Positions 6,083 to 47,278 of a DNA stretch of 64,000 nucleotides are shown here, one piece after another. The position numbers and the translations under genes are program-made. Origin of the DNA: Burkholderiales bacterium (GTDB lineage Bacteria > Pseudomonadota > Gammaproteobacteria > Burkholderiales > SG8-39); contig JBBRAI010000007.1 in the NCBI GenBank assembly GCA_038206915.1, positions 12,005 to 76,004 on the forward strand, in the 5' to 3' direction. The first letter of the stretch is position 1. Each line of letters begins with the position of its first letter. Below the pieces are notes generated by a model. It did no database searches. It was not told the origin of the DNA and saw only the letters and a list, made by a program, of their open reading frames with translations.

Positions 6083-6890
<808 letters not shown>

Positions 6891-6894
<4 letters not shown>

Positions 6895-7955
6895 TCCGCC
6901 GCCTTCGTCAGCTCGCGCTTTCTCACCGCCGAGGGCAGCAGGCCCGCCGGCCGGTAAAGCATCATCAACACCAGCGCCAGGCCGAACAGCAGCATGCGGA
7001 TCACTTCCGGCTCGATGAACGTCCTTCCGAACAGGTACCGCTGCACCGGCTCCACCGTGTAGCGCAGCAGTTCCGGCACGAACGAAAGCAGCACCGCGCC
7101 CAGCACCACGCCCCAGATATTGCCCATGCCGCCGAGCACCACCATGGACAGCACCATGATGGACTCCACCAGGACGAAGCTCTCCGGGCTGATGAAGCCC
7201 TGAATGGCGGCGAACATGCCGCCGGCGATGCCGCCGAAGGAGGCGCCCATGGCGAAGGCGAGCAGCTTGATGCGCGTCGTGTCGATGCCCATCGCGCGCG
7301 CCGCCGTCTCGTCCTCGCGTATCGCCTCCCAGGCGCGGCCGATGCGCGAGTGCTGCAGCCGCAGGTTCACCACGATGGCCAGAAGCAGTATGGCGAGCAG
7401 GATGTAGTAGTACTTGATCGGCCCGGAAAACATGAGGCCGAAGATGGTCTCGTTCTTGCTGAAGCTGAACGAACCGAAACTGAACGGGTCGATGCGCGAG
7501 ATGCCCTGCGGTCCATTGGTGATATTGACCGGCTGCGACAGGTTGTTGAGGAAGATGCGCACGATTTCGCCAAAGCCCAGGGTGACGATGGCAAGATAGT
7601 CGCCGCGCAGTTTGAGCGTGGGCGCGCCCAGCAGCACGCCGAACGCGCACGCCACCAGCGCGCCTATTGGCAGGATCACCCAGAACGGAAGGTGCAGATT
7701 AAAATGCGGCGAGGCGAGCAGGGCATAGGTATAGGCGCCGACGGCGTAGAACGCGACGTAGCCCAGGTCGAGCAGTCCGGCGAACCCGACCACGATGTTC
7801 AGCCCGAGGGACAGGAACACGAACAGGATGGCGAGGTTGCCGATACGCACCCAGGCGGTCCCGACCGATGCGAGCGCGAACGGCAGCCCGATCAGCGCCA
7901 GCGCGATCAGCGCCAATCCGAACCACTTCGCGCGCGGATGGGCGGACAGATTCAC
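6891..7955 (-). CDS. livM: Branched-chain amino acid ABC transporter permease LivM
   Basis: 354-aa polytopic membrane protein of the LivM family, sitting between livH and livG. Confidence 0.9.
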
Positions 7956-7998
7956 CGTGCGCGTCCTGCCCTGAATCCGGCGACTGGTCTCCCGCGCA

Positions 7999-8922
7999 TC
8001 AGGCCCGGTCTCCCACGCGCTCGCCGAGCAGCCCGGAGGGCCGGAACACCAGCACCGCGATCAGCACGATGAAGGCGAATACGTCCTGGTAATTGCTGCC
8101 GAAGACATTGTTGGTGAAATCGCCGATATAGCCGGCGCCCAGGGCTTCGACCAAGCCGAGCAGGATGCCGCCCAGCATAGCGCCCGCAATATTGCCGATG
8201 CCGCCGAGCACCGCGGCCGAGAACGCCTTCATGCCCAGCAGCGAGCCCATGCCGTAGTGGGCGATGCCGTAATAGGTGCCGACCATCACCCCGGCAACCG
8301 CGGCCAGCGCCGCGCCGACTATGAACGTGAAGGAAATGATGCGATCGATGTCTATGCCCATCAGGCCGGCTACCTGCGGATTCTGCGAGGTTGCGCGCAT
8401 GGCGATGCCAAGCTTGGTGCGGTACACGATCAGCGTCAGCGCCACCATCATCAGCACCGAGCCGAGGATGATCGCGATCTGCACGCCGCTGATGATCGCC
8501 CCGCCAATATTGAATCTGACGAACGGGATGATTTGCGGAAATGCCAGCGGGCTGCGGCCCCAGACCAGCAGCGCCACGTGCTGCAGGATGATCGATATGC
8601 CGATGGCGGTGATCAGCGGCGCCAGCCGCGGGGCATTGCGCAAGGGCCGATAGGCCACGCGCTCCATGGCGTAGCCCACCAGCATGCACGCCGGGACTGC
8701 GGCCACTACGCCGGCAAAAACGATCAGCACCGGCGGCAGGGCGGTGCCGGCGAGCGCGCCGATCACCGAGAACGCGACCATGGCGCCGAGCATCACCAGT
8801 TCGCCGTGGGCGAAGTTGATCAGCTGGATGATGCCGTAAACCATGGTGTAGCCCAGCGCGACGATGGCATAGACGCTGCCCAGGGTAAGGCCGTTGATGA
8901 TCTGCTGCAGGAAGATGTCCAT
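7999..8922 (-). CDS. livH: Branched-chain amino acid ABC transporter permease LivH
   Basis: 307 aa. MDIFLQQIINGLTLGSVYAIVALGYTMVYG is the typical LivH N-terminus. Confidence 0.9.
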   Translation of the reverse strand: MDIFLQQIINGLTLGSVYAIVALGYTMVYGIIQLINFAHGELVMLGAMVAFSVIGALAGTALPPVLIVFAGVVAAVPACMLVGYAMERVAYRPLRNAPRLAPLITAIGISIILQHVALLVWGRSPLAFPQIIPFVRFNIGGAIISGVQIAIILGSVLMMVALTLIVYRTKLGIAMRATSQNPQVAGLMGIDIDRIISFTFIVGAALAAVAGVMVGTYYGIAHYGMGSLLGMKAFSAAVLGGIGNIAGAMLGGILLGLVEALGAGYIGDFTNNVFGSNYQDVFAFIVLIAVLVFRPSGLLGERVGDRA

Positions 8923-9060
8923 ACCCGGCCCGATTTAAACCCAAAGGCGCGAAGAACGCAAAGCGCGCTTGTTCGAGTTCGGCCGCAGCAACGAGCCGGC
9001 GCGCACCGGGAGCGGCGGCGCCTGCTCCCGTACGCCGTGTCGAATCAAAGTGCCCCCGGG

Positions 9061-9088
9061 CAAGAAAACGGCGCCCGCAGGCGCCGTT
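9061..9088 (-). terminator. Rho-independent terminator/attenuator after the binding-protein gene
   Basis: Minus strand reads aacggcgcc-tgcg-ggcgccgtt followed by ttcttg, about 30 nt after the stop at 9119. This fits partial termination between the binding-protein gene and the permease genes. Confidence 0.6.
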
Positions 9089-9118
9089 ATTTCTGTAGTG
9101 CTGGTAAGGATCAAGCCC

Positions 9119-10405
9119 TTACTTTTTTGCCGGCTCTGCCGCTTTCGCCGGCTCGGCCTCGGCTTTAGGTGCTTCCGCCGCGGGCTGGGCTGCTTTGAGG
9201 AAGTCTTCGAACTTGATGGTCTTGCCGCCCTTGATGATGGCGATCGGCTCGATCTTGCCGCCTTTCATGGTGAAGATCGTCATCTCCGCGTCCTTGCGGT
9301 CGCCTTTGTCGTCGAACTCGATCCTGCCGCTCGCGCCTTCGTAGCTGATCTTGGCGAGTTCGGGCAGGTATTTCGCAGGATCGGACGAGTCGGCTTTCTT
9401 CATCGCCTCGATAAGGAGATTGGCCGCGTCGTAGGTGAACGGGGCATACAGGATCGGGTCGACGTTGAATTTCGCCTTGTACGCATCGAGGAATTTCTTG
9501 TTCGCGGCCTGGACCGGCAGGCCGGCCTGCGAGCACAGCAGCCCCTCGGAAGCGTCGCCCGCCAGTTCCTTCATCTTGTCGGTGCAGGCGCCGTCGCCGA
9601 ATGCGAACACCGCCTTTATGCCGAGCTCGCGCGCCTGTTTCATCAGCGGACCGCCGGTCGCGTCCATGCCGCCGTAGAACACCGCGTTGGGCTTCTCGCC
9701 CTTGATCTTGGTGAGGATCGCCTTGAAGTCGACGGTTTTGTCGGTCGCCTTCTCGCGCGGAAGCACTTTGATCTTGTCCGCTTTCAGTGTCTTGGCGACT
9801 TCGTTCGCCAGACCTTCGCCGTAAGCGGTGGCGTCGTCGATCACGGCCACGGTCTTCGGCTTGACTTCAACGGCCAGGTAGCTGGCGATCGCCGGACCCT
9901 GCTGATCGTCGCGTCCGACCACGCGAAACACGTTTTTGAATCCCTGCTCGGTCAGCTGGGGGTTGGTCGCCGAGCCGCTGATCATCGGAACGCCCGCCTG
10001 ATTGTAGATGGCCGAAGCCGGGATGGTCACACCCGAATTGAGGTGTCCGACCACGCCTACGACTTTTGCGTCCATCAGCTTCTGCGCCACGGTGGTTCCC
10101 ACCTTGGGATCGGCCTGGTCGTCTTCGGAGATCAGTTCCAGCTTGACCTTCTTGCCGCCCAACGTAAAGCCCGCGGCATTGGCTTCGTCGATCGCCAGGC
10201 GCACGCCGTTCTCGTTGTCTTTGCCCAGGTGGGCGATGCTGCCGGTGAGCGGGCCCACAGTTCCGATCTTCACCACCATCATTGCGGGCGGTGGCGGCGG
10301 CGGCGCAGCAACTACCGGTTCGGGTTTCTTTTCCTCGCCGCAGCCGGCGAGCGTGAAGGCCGCTACCGCGGCGAAAATGGCAATGCTGAACCGCGTGCGT
10401 TGCAT
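9119..10405 (-). CDS. Branched-chain amino acid ABC transporter substrate-binding lipoprotein (LivJ/K family)
   Basis: Starts MQRTRFSIAIFAAVAAFTLAGC (lipobox LAGC), then a Pro-rich linker (AAPPPPPPA). Type I periplasmic binding fold (KIGTVGPLTGSIAHLGKD). Ala/Pro/Lys/Glu-rich C-terminal tail. Confidence 0.85.
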   Translation of the reverse strand: MQRTRFSIAIFAAVAAFTLAGCGEEKKPEPVVAAPPPPPPAMMVVKIGTVGPLTGSIAHLGKDNENGVRLAIDEANAAGFTLGGKKVKLELISEDDQADPKVGTTVAQKLMDAKVVGVVGHLNSGVTIPASAIYNQAGVPMISGSATNPQLTEQGFKNVFRVVGRDDQQGPAIASYLAVEVKPKTVAVIDDATAYGEGLANEVAKTLKADKIKVLPREKATDKTVDFKAILTKIKGEKPNAVFYGGMDATGGPLMKQARELGIKAVFAFGDGACTDKMKELAGDASEGLLCSQAGLPVQAANKKFLDAYKAKFNVDPILYAPFTYDAANLLIEAMKKADSSDPAKYLPELAKISYEGASGRIEFDDKGDRKDAEMTIFTMKGGKIEPIAIIKGGKTIKFEDFLKAAQPAAEAPKAEAEPAKAAEPAKK

Positions 10406-10482
10406 GGTGTTCTCCCCGAAAAAGTCAATGCATTCTAACACTGGATGTCGTTCCTTACCCTGGAATACCCGACCCCAGGGGC

Positions 10483-10506
10483 AACAAAGCCGGCCCGCGG
10501 GCCGGC
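10483..10506 (-). terminator. Rho-independent terminator after the cytochrome c gene
   Basis: Perfect GC palindrome gccggcccgcgggccggc (10489-10506), followed on the minus strand by tttgtt. Lies about 20 nt downstream of the stop at 10525. Confidence 0.6.
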
Positions 10507-10524
10507 CTGCTTTCTATAGGGTGC

Positions 10525-10842
10525 CTACTTCTTGAGCGACAGCACCCATTTCACCAAAGACTTCACGTCGGCGTCCGGCACCGTCGCATTCGGCGGCATC
10601 GGTATCTGGCCCCAGACGCCGGCGCCGCCGTTCTTGACCTTGGCGACAAGCTTGGCCTCGGCGCCGGCATCGCCCTTGTACTTCGCGGCGACGTCATTGT
10701 ATGCAGGGCCGACCAGCTTCTTGTCCACGGAGTGGCAGGCAAGGCAATTATATTTCTTTGCCAGCGCTTCCTGCGCAAGCACATTGCCTGCGCTGGCGAG
10801 AAGTCCGGCCGACACGAGCAAACAGGTGGCGATTGTTTTCAT
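10525..10842 (-). CDS. Class I c-type cytochrome (c551/c552-like), secreted
   Basis: 105 aa. Signal peptide MKTIATCLLVSAGLLASAGNVLA, haem motif CLACH and a distal Met region (GQIPMPPN). Confidence 0.9.
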   Translation of the reverse strand: MKTIATCLLVSAGLLASAGNVLAQEALAKKYNCLACHSVDKKLVGPAYNDVAAKYKGDAGAEAKLVAKVKNGGAGVWGQIPMPPNATVPDADVKSLVKWVLSLKK

Positions 10843-35936: not shown

Positions 35937-36230
35937 TTAGGCATCCTTCGCGTGCGGCTTCGGTGCGTTCATCAGCGAGGGCGTGACGCGCGAACGCGCC
36001 AGATACTCGCGCAGTATCTTGATTGCCGAGCGGTCCAGCGTAGTTCCATGGTGCGGGCGGTGCAGCACATCCTCGTGGCCGTTGAGTTTGACGCGCAGGC
36101 GCGCGCCCGAAAGCGATTCGACTTCAGCACCCAGATGATGCAGCAGCGACTCGATCTCGCGCCAGTGGATATTGCCCGTGATCGGATCGCGGAATATCGC
36201 CTCGATCAGGTGCTCGTGCTTGTGGCTCAT
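35937..36230 (-). CDS. Hypothetical protein with HicA/YcfA-like pattern (orphan)
   Basis: 97 aa (MSHKHEHLIEAIF...). The segment LGAEVESLSGARLRVKLNGHEDVLHRPHHGTTLDRSAIKILREYL resembles the HicA beta-sheet/helix core by eye. No HicB partner is present. Confidence 0.45.
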   Translation of the reverse strand: MSHKHEHLIEAIFRDPITGNIHWREIESLLHHLGAEVESLSGARLRVKLNGHEDVLHRPHHGTTLDRSAIKILREYLARSRVTPSLMNAPKPHAKDA

Positions 36231-36513
36231 GGCGGGCGCCTCCGTACCGGAGTGGGTCTGCGCCCATGATAGCCAAGCCGGCCAGCACTGCAAGCGTCCC
36301 GGCGGTCAGGGTCAGGGGCAGGGCCAGCGTCGAGAGGAGCAGAAGCATCAACAGGCGCTGCACAGGCCTGCTCCATATCCGATGATTCTTGTCGCGCGCG
36401 GCCACGATGCGCGCTCCTGCGGGAATTCACGGACCCGGGCGGGAATCATCGCAGGCAGCACCCGATATTGGCCGCTGCCCGCGGCGATTCGCACCCTTGT
36501 GAACGCAAGCTGC

Positions 36514-36747
36514 CTATTTTTTCATTTCGTCCTTGGCCATGGAATCCTTCTTCATGGCGTCCTTCTTCATGCCGTCGTTTTTCATGCTGTCTTTTTTCAT
36601 CGTGTCTTTCTTCATGCTGTCTTTTTTCATCTCCTCTTTGGCCATGTTGTCTTTGGCCATCGCATCTTTCTTCATGTCGTCAGCGAGCGCGTTGCCGCCG
36701 GCAAGCAGCAGGCTGATGGAAAGCAGGGTTGCAGTGGTCTTGATCAT
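36514..36747 (-). CDS. Secreted methionine-rich pentapeptide-repeat (MXKDX) protein, MrpX-like
   Basis: 77 aa. Signal peptide MIKTTATLLSISLLLAGGNALA, then 11 consecutive M-x-K-(D/E)-x pentapeptides (11 Met in 55 mature residues). Confidence 0.85.
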   Translation of the reverse strand: MIKTTATLLSISLLLAGGNALADDMKKDAMAKDNMAKEEMKKDSMKKDTMKKDSMKNDGMKKDAMKKDSMAKDEMKK

Positions 36748-36815: not shown

Positions 36816-37595
36816 TCAGCTGCCGCCGAACCAGTTGTACCCCTGGTCTTCCCAGTAGCCCCCGGGGTAGGTGTTGGTGACGAAGATCGCCTGGATGTGC
36901 TTCGGATTCTTGTAGCCGAGCTTGGTCGGCATGCGCAGCTTCATCGGAAAGCCATACTTGGGCGGCAGCTGCGCGCCGTCGTAGGTGAGCGTCAGCAGCG
37001 TCTGCGGGTGCAGCGCGGTGGGCATGTCGATGCTGGTGTAGTAATCGTCGGCGCACTTGAAGCCGATGTACCTCGCGCTGGTGTCGGCGCCGACGCGGGC
37101 GAGGAAGTCCGAAAAACGCACGCCGCCCCATTTGCCGATCGCGCTCCAGCCTTCGACGCAGATGTGGCGCGTTACCTGGTCGGTCTGCGGCAGCGCGTTG
37201 AGTTCGGGCAGCGTCCACATGCGTTTGTCGGCGACCATGCCGCCGACTTCCAGACGGTAGCCCGCCGCATCCACCTCGCGGATCTCGTCCTCGCCGTAGT
37301 AGGCGTTGAATGGAAACGGCCGTGTGATCATCGATTCTGGATAGGTCGGCGCGAGCTGATTCGGATCGAACAGCCAGCCCTGCACCCGGTCGTTGAAGCG
37401 CGACACTGTTGTCAGCGCCTGATCGACGCCGTCCTCGTCGGAGATCGCGCAGCCGGTCAGCAGCGACAGGCCGCCGAGCGTGAGTGAACGGCGCAGAAAC
37501 AGGCGTCGCGCGGGCTGCTCGAGGCGGCGCAGCGCCTCCTTCACCACGGCATCGCCGTCCAGCGTCAGTCGTTTGGAAGACTTGAGTATTTTCAT
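36816..37595 (-). CDS. Molybdopterin-dependent oxidoreductase of the YedY/MsrP (sulfite-oxidase fold) family, Tat-exported lipoprotein
   Basis: 259 aa. Twin-arginine leader ARRLFLRRSLTLGGLSLLTGC with lipobox, Mo-ligand Cys context HICVEGWS, and GFPMKLRMPTKLGYKNPKHI. Confidence 0.8.
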   Translation of the reverse strand: MKILKSSKRLTLDGDAVVKEALRRLEQPARRLFLRRSLTLGGLSLLTGCAISDEDGVDQALTTVSRFNDRVQGWLFDPNQLAPTYPESMITRPFPFNAYYGEDEIREVDAAGYRLEVGGMVADKRMWTLPELNALPQTDQVTRHICVEGWSAIGKWGGVRFSDFLARVGADTSARYIGFKCADDYYTSIDMPTALHPQTLLTLTYDGAQLPPKYGFPMKLRMPTKLGYKNPKHIQAIFVTNTYPGGYWEDQGYNWFGGS

Positions 37596-37604
37596 GTTGG
37601 CTCC

Positions 37605-38201
37605 TCAGCGGCCGCGGATCATGGCGAGCAATGTGCGTGGTACCAGCGCCACCATCGCCAGGTGCACCGCGACAAACGCGACCATCGCTGCCATGGCGAA
37701 GAAATGCACGCGGCGTGCGTTTTCGTAGCCGCCCAGCAATTCGCGCAGCAGCGGAAACTGCACTGACTTCCACAGCACCAGGCCCGACAGCACTAGCAGG
37801 ACCGCGTCGACAATCACGAACAGGTAGGCGGCGCGCTGCACCGCGTTGTAATGGCTCAGGTCGTCGTGCGCCAGCTTGCCGCGCAGCGCGTCCACTAGAT
37901 CGGCAATGATCGCGCGCGGCGACAGCGGGAAGAACTTTCGCACGATACGTCCGGTCGCGGCATTGCACAACAGATACACCAGGCCGTTCGCGGCGAGCAG
38001 CCACATCGCGGCAAAATGCCACTGGATTGCGCCGCCGAGCCAGCCGCCGAGCGTAATGTCCTTGGCGAACTTGAAATCGTACAGGGGAGAGGCGTTGTAG
38101 ATGCGCCAGCCGCTCGTGACCATGATCACAACCGCGAGCGCGTTTAGCCAGTGCGTCGCGCGCAGCCAGGCCGGGTGGACTATGCGGTCAGTCTGGTTCA
38201 T
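37605..38201 (-). CDS. Membrane b-type cytochrome (cytochrome b561 / Ni-Fe-hydrogenase b-subunit-like)
   Basis: 198 aa, 4-5 TM segments. Conserved His in TM helices (RATHWLNAL, QWHFAAMW, RRVHFFAM, VAVHLAM). 9-nt gap to the Mo-enzyme gene. Confidence 0.75.
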   Translation of the reverse strand: MNQTDRIVHPAWLRATHWLNALAVVIMVTSGWRIYNASPLYDFKFAKDITLGGWLGGAIQWHFAAMWLLAANGLVYLLCNAATGRIVRKFFPLSPRAIIADLVDALRGKLAHDDLSHYNAVQRAAYLFVIVDAVLLVLSGLVLWKSVQFPLLRELLGGYENARRVHFFAMAAMVAFVAVHLAMVALVPRTLLAMIRGR

Positions 38202-38220: not shown

Positions 38221-39003
38221 TCAGGACGCTGCGCATTGGCGCGCGCTCAGAGCCTGCAGCACCCCGCCGCTGCGTTCGTCCTGCACGAACGCGACCAGTT
38301 CCAGCCGCGCGCGGTTCCAGTCCGCGGGCAGGGCGATCTCACGCTGCACCTTCGCCGCGCCCGCGACGAGGCGCACAGGTCCGATCCACGCACGCACCAC
38401 GTGATCGTGCTTGAGGGTGGAGCCGCTGTTCTCGCCGCGCGTCACGCTCGACGCGAGGCCGCTCTCGGCAAGCGCCAGATACAGCGCCGCCGGGCCGGCC
38501 GCGGCAAGTGTTTTGGCTTCGGCATCGAGTGTAAGCGAGCCATCGGCTGCGACCGCGGCGCGCACATGGATGGCAGCCGCGGCAGGCGCAGCGTTCAGTT
38601 GCCGAACCTTGTCCGCCAGCGCGCCGCGCCAGGAGCGCAGCTCCGCGCCGCCAACGAAGAACTGGGGCGTATAGACGGTGTCGTGCCGGTTGGTGTGTAC
38701 CAGCCAGCTCTGGCGCTGCTCGAACGCGCTTTGCGCATACGGGTCCTTCCAGCCGATGTAGTCCCAATAGCCGACGTGCAGGGCGAGCGGCACCACAGTG
38801 GCGGTTGGGTCCAGCACCTGGTGCAGGCGGCTGAGCTGCTGATCCGCCGGCGGGCAGCTGGAGCAGCCTTCCGAAGTATAGAGTTCTACCAGCGCCGCGG
38901 TCTTCGGACCGCTTTGCGCTTCACAGGCGGCGAAGCCCGTAAGCGGCAGGGTCGCCGCAAGCGTTGCAACCACCGTACGATGGGCGATACGACGCAGATT
39001 CAT
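38221..39003 (-). CDS. DUF1223-family secreted thioredoxin-like protein (CxxC)
   Basis: 260 aa starting MNLRRIAHRTVVATLAATLPLTGFAA (signal peptide). VELYTSEGCSSCPPAD and HVGYWDYIGWKDPY are the DUF1223 hallmarks as I recall them. Confidence 0.8.
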   Translation of the reverse strand: MNLRRIAHRTVVATLAATLPLTGFAACEAQSGPKTAALVELYTSEGCSSCPPADQQLSRLHQVLDPTATVVPLALHVGYWDYIGWKDPYAQSAFEQRQSWLVHTNRHDTVYTPQFFVGGAELRSWRGALADKVRQLNAAPAAAAIHVRAAVAADGSLTLDAEAKTLAAAGPAALYLALAESGLASSVTRGENSGSTLKHDHVVRAWIGPVRLVAGAAKVQREIALPADWNRARLELVAFVQDERSGGVLQALSARQCAAS

Positions 39004-39141: not shown

Positions 39142-39774
39142 CTACCTGTCGCCCCAGACCTCGTGTACCCGGGCGTCGCGGCCGCAGCCGGCGCGGTAGT
39201 ACGAGTAGCGAATCGGGTTCTTCTTGTAGTAGCCCTGGTGATATTCCTCCGCCGGGTAGAACGCGGAAGCGGCAACGACTTCCGTATACACATGCGGCAG
39301 CTTGCCGCTCTTGACCAGTGCGTCGCGGCTCGCGTCGGCGATTTTACGCTCAGTTTCGTTCTGCCAGAAGATGGCGCTGCGGTATTGCGTGCCGACGTCG
39401 CAGAACTGGCGATCTTTCACTGTCGGGTCGATGTGGTGCCAGAAGTAGTCGACCAGCTGCCGATAGCTGACTTTGGCCGGGTCGTAGCGAACACGCACCG
39501 CCTCGGCATGACCGGTGCTGCCGGCGCTGACCTGTGCGTAGGTGGGATTCGGCGTCCTGCCGCCGGTATAACCCGATTCCGCGTCGATCACGCCCGGCAG
39601 CTTCTCGAAGTCCGCTTCCAGACACCAGAAGCAGCCGCCGGCAAAAATAGCGTTCGCCGTGCCGCTGGCACCCGACGCGGCGCCCGCCGGCGCGGCGGCT
39701 GCGGCAAGACCCGCGCCGCCCAGCAGCAGCAACAACGCAGCGACAAAACCGGCCACGCGCACACCCGCCCTCAT
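39142..39774 (-). CDS. msrA: Peptide-methionine (S)-S-oxide reductase MsrA, exported form
   Basis: 210 aa. N-terminal hydrophobic leader (MRAGVRVAGFVAALLLLLGGAGLAAAAA), catalytic GCFWC, and the MsrA core GHAEAV...YHQ.Y. Confidence 0.9.
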   Translation of the reverse strand: MRAGVRVAGFVAALLLLLGGAGLAAAAAPAGAASGASGTANAIFAGGCFWCLEADFEKLPGVIDAESGYTGGRTPNPTYAQVSAGSTGHAEAVRVRYDPAKVSYRQLVDYFWHHIDPTVKDRQFCDVGTQYRSAIFWQNETERKIADASRDALVKSGKLPHVYTEVVAASAFYPAEEYHQGYYKKNPIRYSYYRAGCGRDARVHEVWGDR

Positions 39775-40286
39775 GCGCGCAACTCCGGCAGTTTATCCGT
39801 GCGCAACACGAAATTCAGCGCCACGCCGTTGTTGCAATAGCGTTTGCCGGTGGGTGCCGGACCATCGTCGAAGACGTGGCCCTGGTGCCCGCCGCAACGC
39901 GCGCAGTGATATTCGGTGCGCGGAAAGAGCAATTTGTAGTCGGTTCTGGTGGTCACGGCGCCGGGCAGCGGTCGCCAGAAACTCGGCCAGCCGGTACCAC
40001 TGTCGTACTTGGCGCTGCTGTCGAACAGCGGCAGACTGCACGCGGCGCAGACGAAGGTGCCGTCGTGCTTTTCCTGGTTCAGCGGGCTGCTGCCGGGGCG
40101 TTCCGTTGCTTCATCGAACAGCACGCGATACGCCGCCGCCGGCAGCAGAGCGGCCCATTCGGCCTTAGTCTTGCGCAGCGCCGGCCCGGCGCCATCGGCC
40201 GCGCCGGCCGCGCCGGCGTTGATTATGTGCAGTGCTGACAGGCCCGACAGGCCGAACAGCCATTTGAGGGAGCGACGACGGTCCAT
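39771..40286 (-). CDS. msrB: Peptide-methionine (R)-S-oxide reductase MsrB, exported form (Tat-like leader)
   Basis: 171 aa. MDRRRSLKWLFGLSGLSALHII leader, Zn CxxC pairs (CAAC, CARC), GWPSF and catalytic RYCNNG. ATGA overlap with msrA. Confidence 0.9.
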   Translation of the reverse strand: MDRRRSLKWLFGLSGLSALHIINAGAAGAADGAGPALRKTKAEWAALLPAAAYRVLFDEATERPGSSPLNQEKHDGTFVCAACSLPLFDSSAKYDSGTGWPSFWRPLPGAVTTRTDYKLLFPRTEYHCARCGGHQGHVFDDGPAPTGKRYCNNGVALNFVLRTDKLPELRA

Positions 40287-40462: not shown

Positions 40463-40489
40463 TGTAACAAAAGGCGTCGATGGAGCGAA
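40463..40489 (+). promoter_or_regulatory. ECF-type promoter TGTAACA-N16-CGAA (putative autoregulated sigma promoter)
   Basis: Plus strand reads tgtaaca aaaggcgtcgatggag cgaa. The -10 element overlaps codons 3-4 of the track ORF for the sigma factor. Confidence 0.55.
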
Positions 40490-41052
40490 TGCAAGGGACA
40501 GCCCGGCTGAACGCGGGCGAAAACAGGCTGAAGCTACTCCTGTTGCGCGGGCTTTCCGGCGAGGAGTCGGCCTATCACGCGTTCCTGCAGGAGTTGAGCG
40601 CGCATTTGCGCGCTTTCCTGAGGCGGCGCCTGGCGCGCTTGCCGGACGAAGTGGAGGACCTGGTGCAGGAATCGCTGCTGGCGGTACACAACCAACGTCA
40701 TACCTACGACGCGGGCCAGCCGCTGACGGCGTGGGTGCACGCGATCGCAAAGTACAAGCTGGTGGATCTGCTGCGCCGGCGTTCGAAACGCGAACTGCTC
40801 AGCGATCCGCTGGACGAGGAGTTCGGTCTGGCCGCGGCCTCGGACACGGATGCCGCGGATGCGCGCCGCGATCTGGGCCGGCTGCTGGCGCGCCTGCCCG
40901 AACGCCAGCGCCTGCCCATCGTGCATATGAAACTCGAGGGTCTGTCGGTGGCGCAGACCGCCGAGCTCACGGGCATGTCGGCCTCCGCAGTCAAGGTAGG
41001 CGTACATCGCGGCCTGAAGGCGCTGGCGGCGATGATACGAGAGGCGCCATGA
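40480..41052 (+). CDS. sigF: ECF RNA polymerase sigma factor (SigF-type, partner of NrsF)
   Basis: Sigma-70 region 2 ([20 protein letters not shown]...[19 protein letters not shown]) and region 4 ([44 protein letters not shown]). The 5' end is uncertain because of the promoter overlap. The name is inferred from the NrsF partner. Confidence 0.8.
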
Positions 41053-41690
41053 GAACCGAAGAGCTGGTCAGCATGCTTGCGACCGGTGCCGGCGCGGTAG
41101 CGCCGAACCAGGTCGCGCGCCGCCATGCGCTTGCGCTGGGATGGGGCATTCTGGGCGCCGCGCTGCTGATGGCCATCCTGCTCGGCCCGCGCCCTGATCT
41201 TGCCCGGGCGGTTCTGCTGCCCATGTTCTGGGTGAAGCTCGTGTTTGTCGCGTGCATCGCGGCGGGCAGCCTGGCCGCGGCGCTGCGACTGGCGCGCCCG
41301 GGGCGCAAGCTTGCCTGGGTGCCGGCAGCGGTGGCCGCGCCGGTGCTCGCGATCTGGCTGCTTTCGATGATCGTGCTGGTGCCAGCCGAGGCGGCGCAGC
41401 GCGAAATACTGTTCTTCGGTAGTACCTGGGACGTATGCCCGTTCCTGATCGCCACCTTGTCGGTGCCCGGATTTGTCGCGGCGATGTGGGCGATGCAGGG
41501 ACTTGCGCCCACTCGCCTGCGTCTCGCCGGCGCGGCGGCAGGGCTGTTTGCCGGATCCATGGGCGCGCTGGTGTACTGCCTGCACTGTCCGGAAATGGGC
41601 GCGCCTTTCATCGGTGTCTGGTATCTGCTCGGCATGCTGATACCTGCTGCCGCCGGCGCGCTGCTCGGTCCGCGCCTGCTGCGCTGGTAG
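41049..41690 (+). CDS. nrsF: NrsF-family (DUF1109) membrane anti-sigma factor
   Basis: 213 aa starting [17 protein letters not shown]. Six TM segments and a conserved Cys pair region (VCPF, CLHCPEM). ATGA overlap with the sigma gene. Confidence 0.8.
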
Positions 41691-44393: not shown

Positions 44394-45536
44394 TTAGCTG
44401 AACACCGCCGGCGCGAGCTTTGTCAGCGCTTGCTTACGCGAAATCGATGTGCCTGCGAGCGCAAAACCAAGCAGCTTGCCGCTTGCATCCTCGAATCTGG
44501 CCTCGATTCCGTCCGCTTCCGGATTCAGCTTCCAGCTGCCCGCAAGCGCCGCCGGCGGGCAAACCACCAGCGGCAGCGCCGGGGTCTTCACCACCACCGG
44601 CATGGCGGAATAGGTAACCGGCGTCGCCGTTCCCGCCAGCGTCTGCGCCAAAGCGCGCGCTGCCTGCATCAGCGGCAGCACGTAGGGCAGCGTCTGGCCA
44701 TCGACCTCGGCGCAATCACCCAGGGCATACACGTTTGCCGCGCTGGTCTGCAGCAGGCGGTCGGTGACGATGCCGCGATTGACCTTCAATCCCGCGCGCT
44801 GCGCCAGCCGCACGCGCGGGCGCAAGCCGATTGCGCTGAGCACCACGTCAGTCTTCAGCATCGTCCCGTCGGCGAGCTCTACGTGCAATCCTGCGGCATC
44901 GCGCTTTACCGCGCGCGCCGTGGTCCCCAGGTGCCAGCTTACGCCGGCGGCAGCCAGTGCATGCTGCAGGCGCTCGGCTACCGCCTCGGGCAACAGCCGG
45001 CCCAGTGGCCGCTGTGCCGGGTCGATCACCGCTACACGATAGCCGGCAGCGAGGAGGTCGTTGGCGAACTCGCAGCCGATAAGTCCCGCGCCCAGCAGCA
45101 CCACGCTTTGCTTGCCTTCGATGGCGGCGCGAAAGCTCGCATACGCCGCCAGGTCGTTGACGCGCAACACTTCGTGTGCGGCATCGCCTTGCAGCGCCAG
45201 TTCTATCGGGTCGGCGCCCAGCGCGAGCACCAGCTTCGCGTAGCGTATCGGCGCGCCCGCGACCTGCACCGTGCGCCGGCCGGTATCTATTGCTTCGACC
45301 TCGGCGCCGGCGATAATCCGCGCTTTGAGTTGAACGGCCATTTGTTCGGCTGCGGCGCTCGCGATCTGCGCCGCCGCTTTTCCCGCTGCCAGCGCATTCG
45401 ACAGCATCGGCTTGGAATAGAAACTCGCGTCGTCCCGGCTCAGGATCACCAGCGGCGTGAACTGATCGAGCTTGCGCAGTTCGCGGGCCACGGTGTAGCC
45501 CGCGAGCCCGCTGCCGATGATGAGCACCGGATCCAC
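44394..45536 (-). CDS. NAD(P)/FAD-dependent oxidoreductase, rubredoxin-NAD+ reductase-like
   Basis: 380 aa with a GTG start. Two dinucleotide folds (IIGSGLAGY, LLGAGLIGCEFA). The start is 1 nt downstream of the rubredoxin stop. Confidence 0.85.
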   Translation of the reverse strand: MDPVLIIGSGLAGYTVARELRKLDQFTPLVILSRDDASFYSKPMLSNALAAGKAAAQIASAAAEQMAVQLKARIIAGAEVEAIDTGRRTVQVAGAPIRYAKLVLALGADPIELALQGDAAHEVLRVNDLAAYASFRAAIEGKQSVVLLGAGLIGCEFANDLLAAGYRVAVIDPAQRPLGRLLPEAVAERLQHALAAAGVSWHLGTTARAVKRDAAGLHVELADGTMLKTDVVLSAIGLRPRVRLAQRAGLKVNRGIVTDRLLQTSAANVYALGDCAEVDGQTLPYVLPLMQAARALAQTLAGTATPVTYSAMPVVVKTPALPLVVCPPAALAGSWKLNPEADGIEARFEDASGKLLGFALAGTSISRKQALTKLAPAVFS

Positions 45537-45537
45537 T

Positions 45538-45717
45538 TCAGGCCGCCACCGAGCCGGCTTCTACCATTTCGAAATCGGCCTTGGCCACGCCGCAATCGGG
45601 GCAGGACCAGTCAGCCGGGATGTCCTCCCAGCGCGTTCCCGCGGCGACGCCGTCCTCCGGCATTCCCCTTGCTTCGTCATAGATGAAACCGCACACCACA
45701 CATTGCCATGTCTTCAT
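45538..45717 (-). CDS. Rubredoxin
   Basis: 59-aa ORF absent from the track (below 60 aa): [59 protein letters not shown]. Two CxxCG knuckles. Confidence 0.9.
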
Positions 45718-45746
45718 TTGTTCGCTCCTTGCTGTCGGTAGATTGA

Positions 45747-46217
45747 TTAGTGCTGCGCCTTGGCCAGCGCCGCCTTGTATTGGTTGGCGTGGCGCTCCTC
45801 GACCTTGGCCAGCGCGGCAAATCGCTTGGCCGCCTTCTCCAGCGTGCTGCGGAAGGACTGCGCGTGTTCTTTCGATTCGGCGATCTGCTCGTCGAATTCC
45901 TTTACCGCCGGGGTGTTGCCCTCTTCGACGGCGAGGTGGCGGAATTTCGGGTACATCTCGGTGTACTCGTAGGTTTCACCCTCGATGGCGATCTCCAGCG
46001 CCCGTGCCGGGCTGAGCCCGGACTTGGGATAGAGCAGGTCGAGATGGCCGAAGGCGTGCTGCACGTCCTGATCGGCGGTTTCCGCGAACACGCGCGCGGT
46101 AGCCTCGTCACCGGCTGCGCGAGCGAGTTTGGCGAAATAGCGGTATTTGATGTGCGCCATGCTCTCGCCGGCAAATGCCGCCTCGAGGTTCTGGATGGTG
46201 ATGGATTCCGGTTTCAT
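45747..46217 (-). CDS. Rubrerythrin-family diiron protein (no rubredoxin domain)
   Basis: 156 aa. Four-helix ferritin-like protein with ExxH motifs ([16 protein letters not shown]) and the EGETYEY region. Confidence 0.85.
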
Positions 46218-46257
46218 GTCTGGCTCCTTTGAAATGGGATGAACGTGCTACGGGACC

Positions 46258-46280
46258 GATTATGGCCGCTAGACATAATC
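46258..46280. promoter_or_regulatory. LysR/OxyR-type box: 7-bp perfect inverted repeat GATTATG-N9-CATAATC
   Basis: Located in the 107-bp divergent region between the rubrerythrin gene and oxyR. It has T-N11-A geometry. Confidence 0.55.
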
Positions 46281-46324
46281 GAGTCTAACGACTAATATTG
46301 TTAAACTTGATCGGATATGTCGAT

Positions 46325-47278
46325 ATGCCTGTCCTGCCTTCCCTGCGCCAGCTCGGCTACCTCGTCGCGCTGGCGCAGCACCTCAATTTCACCCGCGCCG
46401 CCGCGGCCTGCTTCGTTACGCAGTCCACGCTCAGCGCCGGGCTGAAGGAGCTGGAGGCGACGCTTGGCGCGATGCTGGTCGAGCGCGACCGGCAAAGCGT
46501 GCTCATGACGCCGCTGGGGCTGGAAGCGGCAACGCGCGCGCGCCAGTTGCTCGCCGCGGCGGAGGACCTGGTCCAACTCGCCGCAGCGTCGGCCCAGCCG
46601 ATGACAGGCGCGCTGCGCCTGGGCGCGATTCCGACGCTCGCGCCTTTCCTGCTGCCGCACATCCTTCCCGGTCTGCGCGCGAAATACCCGCAGCTGAAGC
46701 TGTTGCTGCGCGAGGACGTCAGCGCCAACCTGCTGCAGCGCCTTGCGGACGGACAGCTCGATTTCGTGCTGCTGGCCTTACCGTTCGATACCGGGGATAT
46801 GCAAGTGCGTGCGTTGTTCGACGACGAGTTCTGGCTGGTCGGGCGCGAGGACGACCCGGCGCTCAAGGCCAGGCGCGCAAGCGTCAGCGCACCGGTTGCG
46901 GAGCGGCTGCTGCTGCTGGAGGAGGGCCACTGCCTGCGCGAGCACACGCTCGCCGCCTGTGCCGGCCGCGAGCCCTCCAGCCGCTCCGGCGTGGAAGCTA
47001 CCAGCCTGCTGACGCTGGTGCAGATGGTCGAATCGGGCATCGGCCTTGCGCTGGTGCCGGAGATCGCGCTGAACAGCGGCTTGCTCAAGGGAACCAAACT
47101 CGTCGCGCGGCCGCTGACTTCGCCGGCTCCGAAGCGCACCATAGCGCTGCTGGCGCGGCGCTCCAGTGCGCGGCAGGCAGAGCTAGCGGCGCTGGGCGAA
47201 TTCATCGAAGCCGCGCGCCGACAGGATCACTATGCCGTCAGCACGTCCAGGGGACGGCGGCGTCCTTCACACCAATAG
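46325..47278 (+). CDS. oxyR: LysR-family hydrogen peroxide sensor OxyR
   Basis: Starts MPVLPSLRQLGYLVALAQHLNFTRAA. The redox Cys pair sits in the canonical context LLEEGHCLREHTLAAC (Cys199/Cys208 equivalents). Confidence 0.85.
   Translation: MPVLPSLRQLGYLVALAQHLNFTRAAAACFVTQSTLSAGLKELEATLGAMLVERDRQSVLMTPLGLEAATRARQLLAAAEDLVQLAAASAQPMTGALRLGAIPTLAPFLLPHILPGLRAKYPQLKLLLREDVSANLLQRLADGQLDFVLLALPFDTGDMQVRALFDDEFWLVGREDDPALKARRASVSAPVAERLLLLEEGHCLREHTLAACAGREPSSRSGVEATSLLTLVQMVESGIGLALVPEIALNSGLLKGTKLVARPLTSPAPKRTIALLARRSSARQAELAALGEFIEAARRQDHYAVSTSRGRRRPSHQ

Follow-up and report, generated by a model that had tools for sequence, protein, structure and literature searches.

Introduction

Thiol-dependent methionine sulfoxide reductases (Msr) require a donor of the thioredoxin type. 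Methionine sulfoxide repair in the cell envelope aids tolerance of oxidants and bleach, and virulence in several pathogens, and in many Proteobacteria the leader-bearing MsrA and MsrB proteins come without a fused thioredoxin (Trx) domain and without a TlpA-type thioredoxin and CcdA. In PilB of Neisseria, a fused Trx domain is fed by DsbD (cited in PMC3322552). H. influenzae has an operon-encoded exported thioredoxin, Trxe, together with CcdA (PMC9404787), and S. pneumoniae has Etrx1/2 with CcdA1/2 (PMC3914529). In the EcfF/OsrA regulon of Bradyrhizobium, a periplasmic thioredoxin and a CcdA-like protein form a pair that the authors proposed as a relay to the periplasmic Msr Blr7043 (PMC3420878). 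Here we analyzed a 64,000-nt stretch of DNA from a Burkholderiales bacterium (assembly GCA_038206915.1, contig JBBRAI010000007.1, positions 12,005 to 76,004), referred to as the window, in which the genes of leader-bearing MsrB and MsrA are followed by a gene encoding a protein of the DUF1223 family. This protein is probably a periplasmic thiol-disulfide oxidoreductase of the SigF/NrsF regulon, with two domains and a thioredoxin fold, that recycles exported MsrA and MsrB.

The closest likeness to PilB is seen in natural fusions of DUF1223 with Msr, in which an exported thioredoxin-fold module stands ahead of MsrA and MsrB; two of these (P0272 and P0273) match PilB in domain order (Trx-MsrA-MsrB). 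The systems are also alike in being controlled by an extracytoplasmic function (ECF) sigma factor, for PilB as given in PMC3420878 (with reference to Gunesekere 2006), and in having DsbD as the proposed electron source. In contrast to the Trx domain of PilB, the DUF1223 module belongs to another family, is extended by an Omp28-like beta-sandwich and, in the window, has a gene and a promoter of its own. The MsrB domain of Neisseria presumably also has a recycling Cys, which is missing in the MsrB of the window. With Trxe, Etrx1/2 and the pair Bll1026 and Bll1027 of B. japonicum, the DUF1223 protein shares the pattern of a stand-alone thioredoxin-fold protein, exported and linked to or co-regulated with exported Msr, and with Bll1026 also the SigF/NrsF-type (EcfF/OsrA) regulon. 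However, Trxe, Etrx and Bll1026 are single-domain TlpA/Redoxin members with a dedicated CcdA-type transporter, whereas DUF1223 is a two-domain protein of another family and, save in two loci (L008 and L009), has no CcdA or DsbD linked to it. Functionally, DUF1223 would be another extracytoplasmic thioredoxin recycling Msr, while by sequence it would be a distinct two-domain family separate from TlpA, Redoxin and Thioredoxin. The regulon context of SigF/NrsF, the molybdenum (Mo) enzyme and MrpX has already been published; no connection between DUF1223 and Msr was found in the literature searched, and no new principle is involved.

The DUF1223 protein and its predicted fold

The open reading frame (ORF) of the DUF1223 gene encodes 260 aa and is preceded by a ribosome-binding site, AAAGGAGG, 8 nt before the ATG. 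A longer ORF with a GTG start, extending to 39138, is not supported, as most homologs among the 120 closest matches listed are ~260 aa in length. The protein matched the entire Pfam profile PF06764 (DUF1223; profile positions 1–202 of 202, E=2.8e-55, 187.9 bits vs. a cut-off of 30.7), and a second, weaker Pfam match to Omp28 was found in its C-terminal part. In Pfam and NCBIfam, DUF1223 and Omp28 were the only families matched, and the Thioredoxin, Redoxin, AhpC-TSA and TlpA families gave no match. The N-terminus, MNLRRIAHRTVVATLAATLPLTGFAA, has the form of a signal peptide, with C27 located directly after the predicted cleavage site, and the CxxC is found in the motif YTSEGCSSCPPAD. The Pfam match, the leader-like N-terminus and the gene order thus bear out the initial annotation, which had described a signal-peptide DUF1223 protein encoded downstream of msrBA. 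The family is large, comprising 9,365 clusters at 50% identity (E<=1e-3), and has members in plants and fungi as well.

Among 108 homologs (35–54% identity), residues S44, G46, C47, C50, P51, H76, W80, G84, D87, T112, P113, G190, E191 and N192 are invariant, while C27 and C257 are conserved in at least 90%. C27 co-varies with the near-invariant C257, and the two probably form a structural disulfide joining the N- and C-termini. A lipoprotein reading of Cys27 was rejected, as the corresponding Cys of homologs is located 1–3 residues past an AxA-type cleavage site and some of the contexts, such as DSSC in L024, are not lipoboxes.

A structure of the family is found in PDB entry 2AXO (Atu2684), which belongs to the thioredoxin-like class in SCOP (PMC3091736). 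The window protein could be aligned to 2AXO with matching CxxC positions, both as a single sequence (E=3.4e-18) and as a profile (E=2.6e-39). An AlphaFold2 (AF2) model built on the alignment of 108 sequences reached a predicted local distance difference test (pLDDT) score of 93 and a predicted TM-score (pTM) of 0.88; an AlphaFold model made from the single sequence (pLDDT 31) was discarded. In the AF2 model, a predicted strand (37–43) is followed by C47/C50 and a helix (50–58), so that the CxxC stands at the N-terminus of helix 1, and T112-P113 is located immediately before a predicted strand (114–117), where the cis-Pro loop is expected. The C-terminal half is modeled as all-beta. The best PDB matches in Foldseek were 2AXO (E=1.4e-12) and HBP35 (5Y1A; E=7.7e-12, TM 0.67), followed by the Omp28 domain. 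A match of the Omp28 domain (2R2C) to the C-terminal half was also obtained with E=5e-4. The structure prediction suggested alongside the initial annotation thus returned a thioredoxin fold in which the modeled arrangement of the CxxC is the canonical thioredoxin one.

Atu2684 and SrlA of S. meliloti resemble the window protein in Pfam family, in the GC(A/S)SCPPAD motif, in having a signal peptide and in the thioredoxin fold. Atu2684 is 58% identical to SrlA, and could be aligned with the window protein over residues 22–203 only. HBP35 of P. gingivalis and Omp28 likewise combine a thioredoxin-like domain with a beta-sandwich. Reduction of insulin disulfides by HBP35 depends on its CxxC, C48/C51 (PMC2907840). 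HBP35 and DUF1223 share 16% identity, and HBP35 is a surface protein of the type IX secretion system involved in heme use, with no Msr context. The only functional study of the DUF1223 family is that of SrlA, the deletion of which causes sensitivity to salt, H2O2 and cumene hydroperoxide, and in which a Cys-to-Ser change in the CxxC abolishes autorepression of its own promoter (PMC9561847). Searches of the literature for DUF1223, PF06764, Atu2684 and 2AXO returned no link of the family to Msr and no published biochemical function. DUF1223 had been described in the initial annotation as lacking an assigned function, which holds for its biochemical role in the literature searched; however, the fold is solved (2AXO) and phenotypes of SrlA are known.

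Natural fusions of DUF1223 with MsrA and MsrB

In order to find fusion proteins, a profile of five concatenated DUF1223 and MsrA pairs was searched against 5.8 billion proteins, a design in which two-domain proteins should outrank single-domain ones. The top four matches were natural fusions: P0271 (586 aa, DUF1223-MsrB-MsrA), P0272 (682 aa, DUF1223-MsrA-MsrB), P0273 (591 aa, DUF1223-MsrA-MsrB) and P0274 (474 aa, DUF1223-MsrA, with the protein ending in the first residues of an MsrB-like segment). All four have an N-terminal leader and retain SSEGCSSCPPAD, HVDYWN, YTPG and GEN intact. The occurrence of two domain orders implies that such fusions arose independently at least twice. Upstream of the P0271 gene, a perfect GTAACC-N16-CGAA was found, ending 28 nt ahead of the ATG, and an ECF sigma/NrsF pair is encoded divergently from this gene.

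Sequence features of MsrA and MsrB

In the window, msrB and msrA are located directly upstream of the DUF1223 gene on the same strand. Extensions of ~41 residues in MsrA and ~49 residues in MsrB precede the catalytic domains. The leader of MsrB appears to be of the twin-arginine type (MDRRRSLKW), and its RR motif is kept in the orthologs of L006, L012 and L052, while that of MsrA is hydrophobic and appears Sec-like. The export leaders that had been read from the two sequences earlier were thus recovered as leader-like N-termini which, like that of DUF1223, are conserved among orthologs.

MsrA retains the GCFWC active site and a C-terminal Cys197, and would therefore end its catalytic cycle as a disulfide. 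In MsrB, the catalytic Cys151 and four Zn-site Cys are present, while the canonical recycling Cys is missing (SGTGWPSF). This sequence type points to a partner with direct activity on the sulfenate, which an MsrB without the recycling Cys would require. All MsrB sequences found beside or fused to DUF1223 (window, L006, L012, L052, L053, L081 and P0271–P0273) have S-G/Q/R-T-GWPSF and not the recycling-Cys motif GCGWPSF. The four Zn-site Cys are missing as well from the fused MsrB and from the MsrB part of an MsrAB fusion in L053.

Linkage of DUF1223 and msr in other genomes

A scan of representative genomes yielded 80 DUF1223 loci (1.17 Mb), the neighbors of which were identified by tblastn with the window proteins; L001 was obtained from a separate look-up. 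Many of the locus contigs are short, and the neighbor counts are therefore lower bounds. Close relatives (73–86% identity) have the same arrangement as the window, with sigF-nrsF divergent from msrB-msrA-DUF1223-cytochrome b-Mo enzyme and with conserved flanks. In one of them (L088), msrA abuts the DUF1223 gene with no spacer, and a SigF motif is present wherever a spacer exists.

Ten msr matches were found in the 80 loci. Nine of these have leaders and are located no more than 2.2 kb from DUF1223 in the same orientation; the tenth was a leaderless msrB on the opposite strand. Exported-type msr linkage was seen in six of the 80 loci (L005, L006, L012, L052, L053 and L081), which fall in at least four separate branches of a neighbor-joining DUF1223 tree and come from Betaproteobacteria, an unclassified gammaproteobacterium and a metagenome-assembled genome (MAG) of the Verrucomicrobiae. 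The gene orders include DUF1223-mrpX-msrA, DUF1223-cytochrome b-Mo enzyme-mrpX-msrB-msrA, DUF1223-msrB, mrpX-DUF1223-msrB-msrA, and an msrAB fusion followed by DUF1223, the stop of the fusion overlapping the start of DUF1223 in this last case (L053). The genomic association is thus not confined to the window, with same-strand adjacency to msr recurring in several lineages and in several orders.

Other neighbors connected with methionine sulfoxide repair were also observed. Cytochrome b and the Mo enzyme, in part with mrpX, are found beside DUF1223 in seven loci (L001, L004, L006, L007, L010, L022 and L035), and genes matched in Pfam as canonical MsrP and MsrQ are divergent from it in L011, L023 and L024. 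The sigF-nrsF pair was found near DUF1223 in L004–L007 and L016. When 514 neighbor genes were clustered unsupervised, the Mo enzyme, cytochrome b and Msr were among the four most recurrent families, the remaining one apparently reflecting lineage-specific synteny. In total, a neighbor belonging to methionine sulfoxide repair, SigF or DsbD was present in at least 17 of the 80 loci (21%).

SigF-type promoters

The sequence TGTAACC-N16-CGAA, which contains the published SigF consensus GTAACC-N16-CGAA (PMC3511200), occurs exactly twice in the 64 kb of the window (P1 and P2 in Table 1), against a chance expectation of 0.05 and with two or more matches in none of 100 shuffles. The initial annotation had noted a promoter motif shared by DUF1223 and msrBA, and this was confirmed. 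No intrinsic terminator was found between msrA and DUF1223, all hits being at chance level and inside coding sequence. DUF1223 has its own SigF-type promoter, P2, and would therefore be the first gene of a second SigF-driven unit and not a mere tail of msrBA. A counterpart of P2 is located between msrA and DUF1223 in L084 and L086/L087, and is missing in L088 where the two genes abut; a SigF motif is also found directly upstream of DUF1223 in L004, L006, L007 and L016.

The sigF-nrsF pair is divergent from msrB. In Caulobacter, the conserved Cys of NrsF, which are required to hold SigF inactive, have a predicted periplasmic orientation (PMC3511200), and the corresponding Cys are retained in the NrsF of the window. 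A motif on the sigF side was also found in L004, L006, L084, L086 and L088, and is perfect in the relatives. In every relative checked, this motif overlaps the annotated sigF start codon by ~10 nt. Either the sigF start is annotated too far upstream, or this is an autoregulatory promoter of unusual geometry.

Genes downstream of DUF1223

Spacers of 10–70 nt separate DUF1223 and its three downstream genes, which encode a cytochrome b, an Mo enzyme and an MrpX-like peptide (Table 1). The initial annotation had mentioned neither this peptide nor the reactive-chlorine regulon. The Mo enzyme is a short member of the sulfite oxidase family (259 aa), with MsrP as its best NCBIfam match at 72.9 bits, far under the cut-off of 207, and its partner is a PF01292 cytochrome b561 and not an MsrQ of PF01794. 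The two look like a distinct MsrPQ-like subfamily.

In Azospira suillum, SigF/NrsF, YedY1/YedZ1 and MrpX form a hypochlorite response in which MrpX is a sacrificial Met sink that is re-reduced by the Mo enzyme (PMC4436054). Judged by its predicted products, the window cluster is this known reactive-chlorine response module of SigF/NrsF, YedY/YedZ and MrpX. Common to both systems are the regulator pair, the promoter type, a Met-rich peptide of the periplasm, and an Mo oxidoreductase that is combined with a cytochrome of the membrane (PMC4436054). They differ in that the regulon described for Azospira is without DUF1223, msrA and msrB, although the same paper notes that YedY is often linked to msrA/msrB (PMC4436054), and in the size of the Mo enzyme and the type of cytochrome in the window.

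Table 1. Features of the window discussed in the text, with positions given on the forward strand.
Feature	Positions	Strand	Description
DUF1223 protein	38221–39003	−	Predicted signal peptide, thioredoxin-like domain with C47-S-S-C50, C-terminal Omp28-like beta-sandwich, conserved pair C27/C257
msrB	39771–40286	−	Putative twin-arginine leader; PF01641 E=4.2e-43, TIGR00357
msrA	39142–39774	−	Putative Sec-type leader; PF01625 E=3.9e-62, TIGR00401
SigF-type promoter P1	40377–40403	−	TGTAACC-N16-CGAA upstream of msrB; motif kept in L084, L086, L088
SigF-type promoter P2	39061–39087	−	TGTAACC-N16-CGAA, 58 nt upstream of DUF1223 ATG
Possible autoregulatory SigF-type promoter of sigF-nrsF	40464–40489	+	One mismatch; overlaps annotated sigF ATG
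ECF sigma factor, SigF type	40480–41052	+	Pfam Sigma70_r2/r4_2/ECF; NCBIfam PRK12536, 302 bits; 4-nt overlap with nrsF
NrsF anti-sigma factor	41049–41690	+	PF06532 E=8.2e-69; Cys130 and CLHC 177–180
Cytochrome b561-type membrane subunit	37605–38201	−	PF01292 E=2.2e-26; presumed quinol-linked donor to Mo enzyme
MsrP-like molybdopterin oxidoreductase	36816–37595	−	Putative Tat (twin-arginine) leader, LLTGC lipobox; PF00174 E=1.3e-29
MrpX-like secreted Met-rich peptide	36514–36747	−	77 aa, MxKDx repeats; TIGR02953 E=1.1e-21; mature part 20% Met
dsbD, candidate unlinked electron source	1125–2966	−	NCBIfam DsbD E=8.6e-183

Electron supply

The initial annotation had proposed that DUF1223 shuttles electrons to MsrA and MsrB from the DsbD encoded in the window or, alternatively, from the adjacent cytochrome b. 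The cytochrome b has a single Cys, located in a membrane helix, and is paired with the Mo enzyme in all related loci, as MsrQ is with MsrP. A thiol relay through this protein was rejected on these grounds; the cytochrome b is also missing in the two fusion loci examined and in the majority of DUF1223 loci with linked msr.

For DsbD the picture is mixed. A dsbD gene is present in the window, as had been noted, and dsbD is located immediately downstream of DUF1223(-mrpX) in L008 and L009, while in the window itself the gene is unlinked. A relaxed tblastn search with three DsbD domains against 90 loci found no CcdA/DsbD-like genes near DUF1223 beyond L008 and L009. In these two loci (L008 9228–13351 and L009 691–4840), a GST-like protein of cytoplasmic type, DUF1223, (MrpX) and a full-length DsbD are encoded in an apparent operon, which in L009 is preceded by a perfect SigF motif. 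This operon may carry a stress-dedicated copy of DsbD.

Proposed role of DUF1223

The DUF1223 protein is the only thioredoxin-fold protein of the window cluster and would fill the place of the Msr donor. Adjacency, fusions, shared SigF-type promoters and the fold all speak for the shuttle to MsrA/MsrB as initially proposed; its link to DsbD is indirect, and that to the cytochrome b found no support. DUF1223 as the thiol partner of Msr is computationally well supported, and we regard this as a likely role which is neither proven nor family-wide.

In the mechanism that we propose, periplasmic oxidant stress would free SigF from NrsF, as suggested by the promoter motifs and the published regulons. 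SigF would then fire P1, giving msrB-msrA, and P2, giving DUF1223, the cytochrome b, the MsrP-like Mo enzyme and mrpX. From their sequences and from known Msr chemistry, MsrB (exported by Tat) and MsrA (exported by Sec) would act on the methionine sulfoxide of both envelope proteins and the sacrificial MrpX and reduce it, which would leave MsrA as a disulfide and MsrB as a sulfenate on Cys151. The fusions, the adjacency and the co-regulation are consistent with attack of an exposed Cys47 of DUF1223 on the oxidized Msr and resolution of the mixed disulfide by Cys50; regeneration of Msr in this manner would parallel that by the N-terminal Trx domain of Neisseria PilB. Oxidized DUF1223 could in turn be re-reduced by DsbD from cytoplasmic thioredoxin, a step for which the evidence is weak. 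Electrons would accordingly pass from DsbD via C47/C50 of DUF1223 to MsrA and MsrB, and on to the methionine sulfoxide of envelope proteins and MrpX. The Mo enzyme and the cytochrome b would form a parallel branch of methionine sulfoxide reduction within the same regulon, driven by quinol and independent of thiols.

Several observations weigh against a dedicated Msr partner. About 63 of the 80 DUF1223 loci have no Msr, MsrP, MrpX, SigF or DsbD neighbor, and six loci (L001, L004, L007, L010, L022 and L035) have a cytochrome b/Mo enzyme operon headed by DUF1223 with no msr in the locus sequence. In the cytochrome b/Mo enzyme clade, the linkage of DUF1223 to the Mo system, which works without thiols, is at least as tight. 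An exclusive partnership of the family with Msr is not possible, unless the exported msr is located elsewhere in those genomes, as units of the Bradyrhizobium regulon are. Unlike the window protein, SrlA is controlled by CenK-CenR and has no reported linkage to Msr, and the CxxC Cys is dispensable for its salt phenotype, the C61S variant still complementing (PMC9561847). All four fusions are singletons that come from metagenomes or MAGs, although P0272, P0273 and P0274 are homologs that diverge from one another yet share an architecture, and this speaks against an assembly artifact. As regards the electron source, the dsbD of the window is ~35 kb from DUF1223 with no visible linkage, and the adjacency of dsbD in L008 and L009 is probably a single evolutionary event. 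Export of MsrA, MsrB and DUF1223 is deduced from their leaders, and all evidence for the coupling of DUF1223 and Msr is guilt by association.

Part of these observations would be accounted for if DUF1223 were a periplasmic reductase of broad repair function within the hypochlorite regulon, similar to DsbG/DsbC and acting on sulfenylated or wrongly disulfide-bonded Cys of numerous envelope proteins, with MsrA and MsrB, where they occur, as two clients among many. Both the six operons of DUF1223, cytochrome b and Mo enzyme (with or without mrpX) that lack msr and the ~80% of family loci without an Msr neighbor are explained in this way, and the range of stresses to which the srlA mutant is sensitive fits equally well (PMC9561847). 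The MsrB type found beside DUF1223 requires a partner that can handle a sulfenate, which a general reductase could provide. We also take the invariant Thr ahead of the presumed cis-Pro in DUF1223 to resemble that of DsbC and DsbG. However, a dimerization domain of the DsbC/DsbG type is not seen in the DUF1223 model, msr is among the four most recurrent neighbor families, and the fusions with MsrA/MsrB in two domain orders argue for a dedicated partnership in those lineages. We consider a general reductase unlikely, though it is the chief rival of the reading favored here.

Alternatively, DUF1223 might reset signaling after stress, by re-reducing the periplasm-facing Cys of NrsF so that SigF switches off. 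The required Cys are predicted to be periplasmic (PMC3511200) and are kept in the NrsF of the window, L016 combines sigF-nrsF-nrsF, a SigF motif and DUF1223 while neither Msr nor an Mo enzyme is encoded next to them, and in SrlA the CxxC Cys are needed for autorepression of its own promoter and not for stress complementation (PMC9561847). Such a function leaves the MsrA/MsrB fusions unexplained, as well as the msr adjacency without a nearby sigF-nrsF in L012, L052, L053 and L081, and SrlA is under CenK-CenR and not SigF; it appears very unlikely. A role without any redox relay, in which DUF1223 binds Cu or Cd by its CxxC or serves as an accessory of the MsrP-like Mo enzyme, might be suggested by the response of Caulobacter SigF regulons to Cr and Cd (PMC3511200), by the bufferin-type operons with MbnB/DUF2063 beside DUF1223 in five loci, by the invariant H76, D87, E191 and N192 that accompany the CxxC and, for the Mo enzyme, by the position of DUF1223 in the operon. 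The CxxC is nevertheless at the canonical redox position in the modeled thioredoxin fold, with an invariant loop at the presumed cis-Pro position, and disulfide reductase activity is known for its structural relative HBP35. As for the accessory function, the fusions join DUF1223 to thiol-dependent Msr and not to the Mo enzyme, and we know of no MsrP-type enzyme that requires a thiol partner. We regard both variants as very unlikely.

Recycling of exported MsrA and MsrB thus remains the reading we favor for the DUF1223 protein of the window. More tentatively, and with somewhat less than an even chance in our estimate, DUF1223 may represent a widespread and so far unrecognized class of two-domain extracytoplasmic reductases that are dedicated donors to stand-alone exported MsrA/MsrB and directly reduce the sulfenate of MsrB without a recycling Cys, the beta-sandwich docking Msr or DsbD. 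Members in plants and fungi would, by extension, take part in the repair of methionine sulfoxide or sulfenate in oxidizing compartments. If DUF1223 is indeed the donor of exported Msr, this would be the first mechanistic assignment of a large DUF family, and the electron flow of the SigF/NrsF response would be complete, with a thiol-driven MsrA/B branch, a quinol-driven Mo branch and MrpX as the sink. The proposed connection of DUF1223 with Msr gives the protein a directly testable function, for which simple experiments would be decisive.

Other observations at DUF1223 loci and in the window

Some DUF1223 loci have gene contents of a different kind. In L016 (Burkholderia sp. Leaf177, 7921–10735), sigF is followed by two tandem nrsF paralogs, each after a SigF motif, and then by a third motif and DUF1223, with an mrpX-like gene 3 kb upstream. 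In L026, L036, L038 and L039 (Methylotenera MAGs) and in L074, DUF1223 has as neighbors genes for a small secreted peptide rich in Cys, for a DUF2063 protein and for an enzyme of the MbnB/DUF692 type (E=2.8e-111). From the families of their predicted products, these MbnB/DUF2063 neighbors constitute an operon of the bufferin type of ribosomally synthesized and post-translationally modified peptides. Homologs of bufferin-type operons belong to the Caulobacter SigF regulon. In L001, a relative without msrBA, the region 6400–7929 holds a gene for a thioredoxin of 109 aa (PF00085) together with three small ORFs that have no annotation, just upstream of DUF1223-cytochrome b-Mo enzyme and on the same strand.

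In the window, an ORF located 3′ of mrpX (35937–36293, minus strand) matched the HicA toxin at the Pfam threshold (27.0 bits, E=4.8e-6), and its position is filled by the same gene in L084, L086 and L088. On the other side of the cluster, the region 44394–47278 contains a rubredoxin-like ORF (45538–45717), a rubrerythrin-like ORF (45747–46217) and a divergent LysR-type ORF, as judged by eye from the translations, and may be another oxidative-stress cluster.

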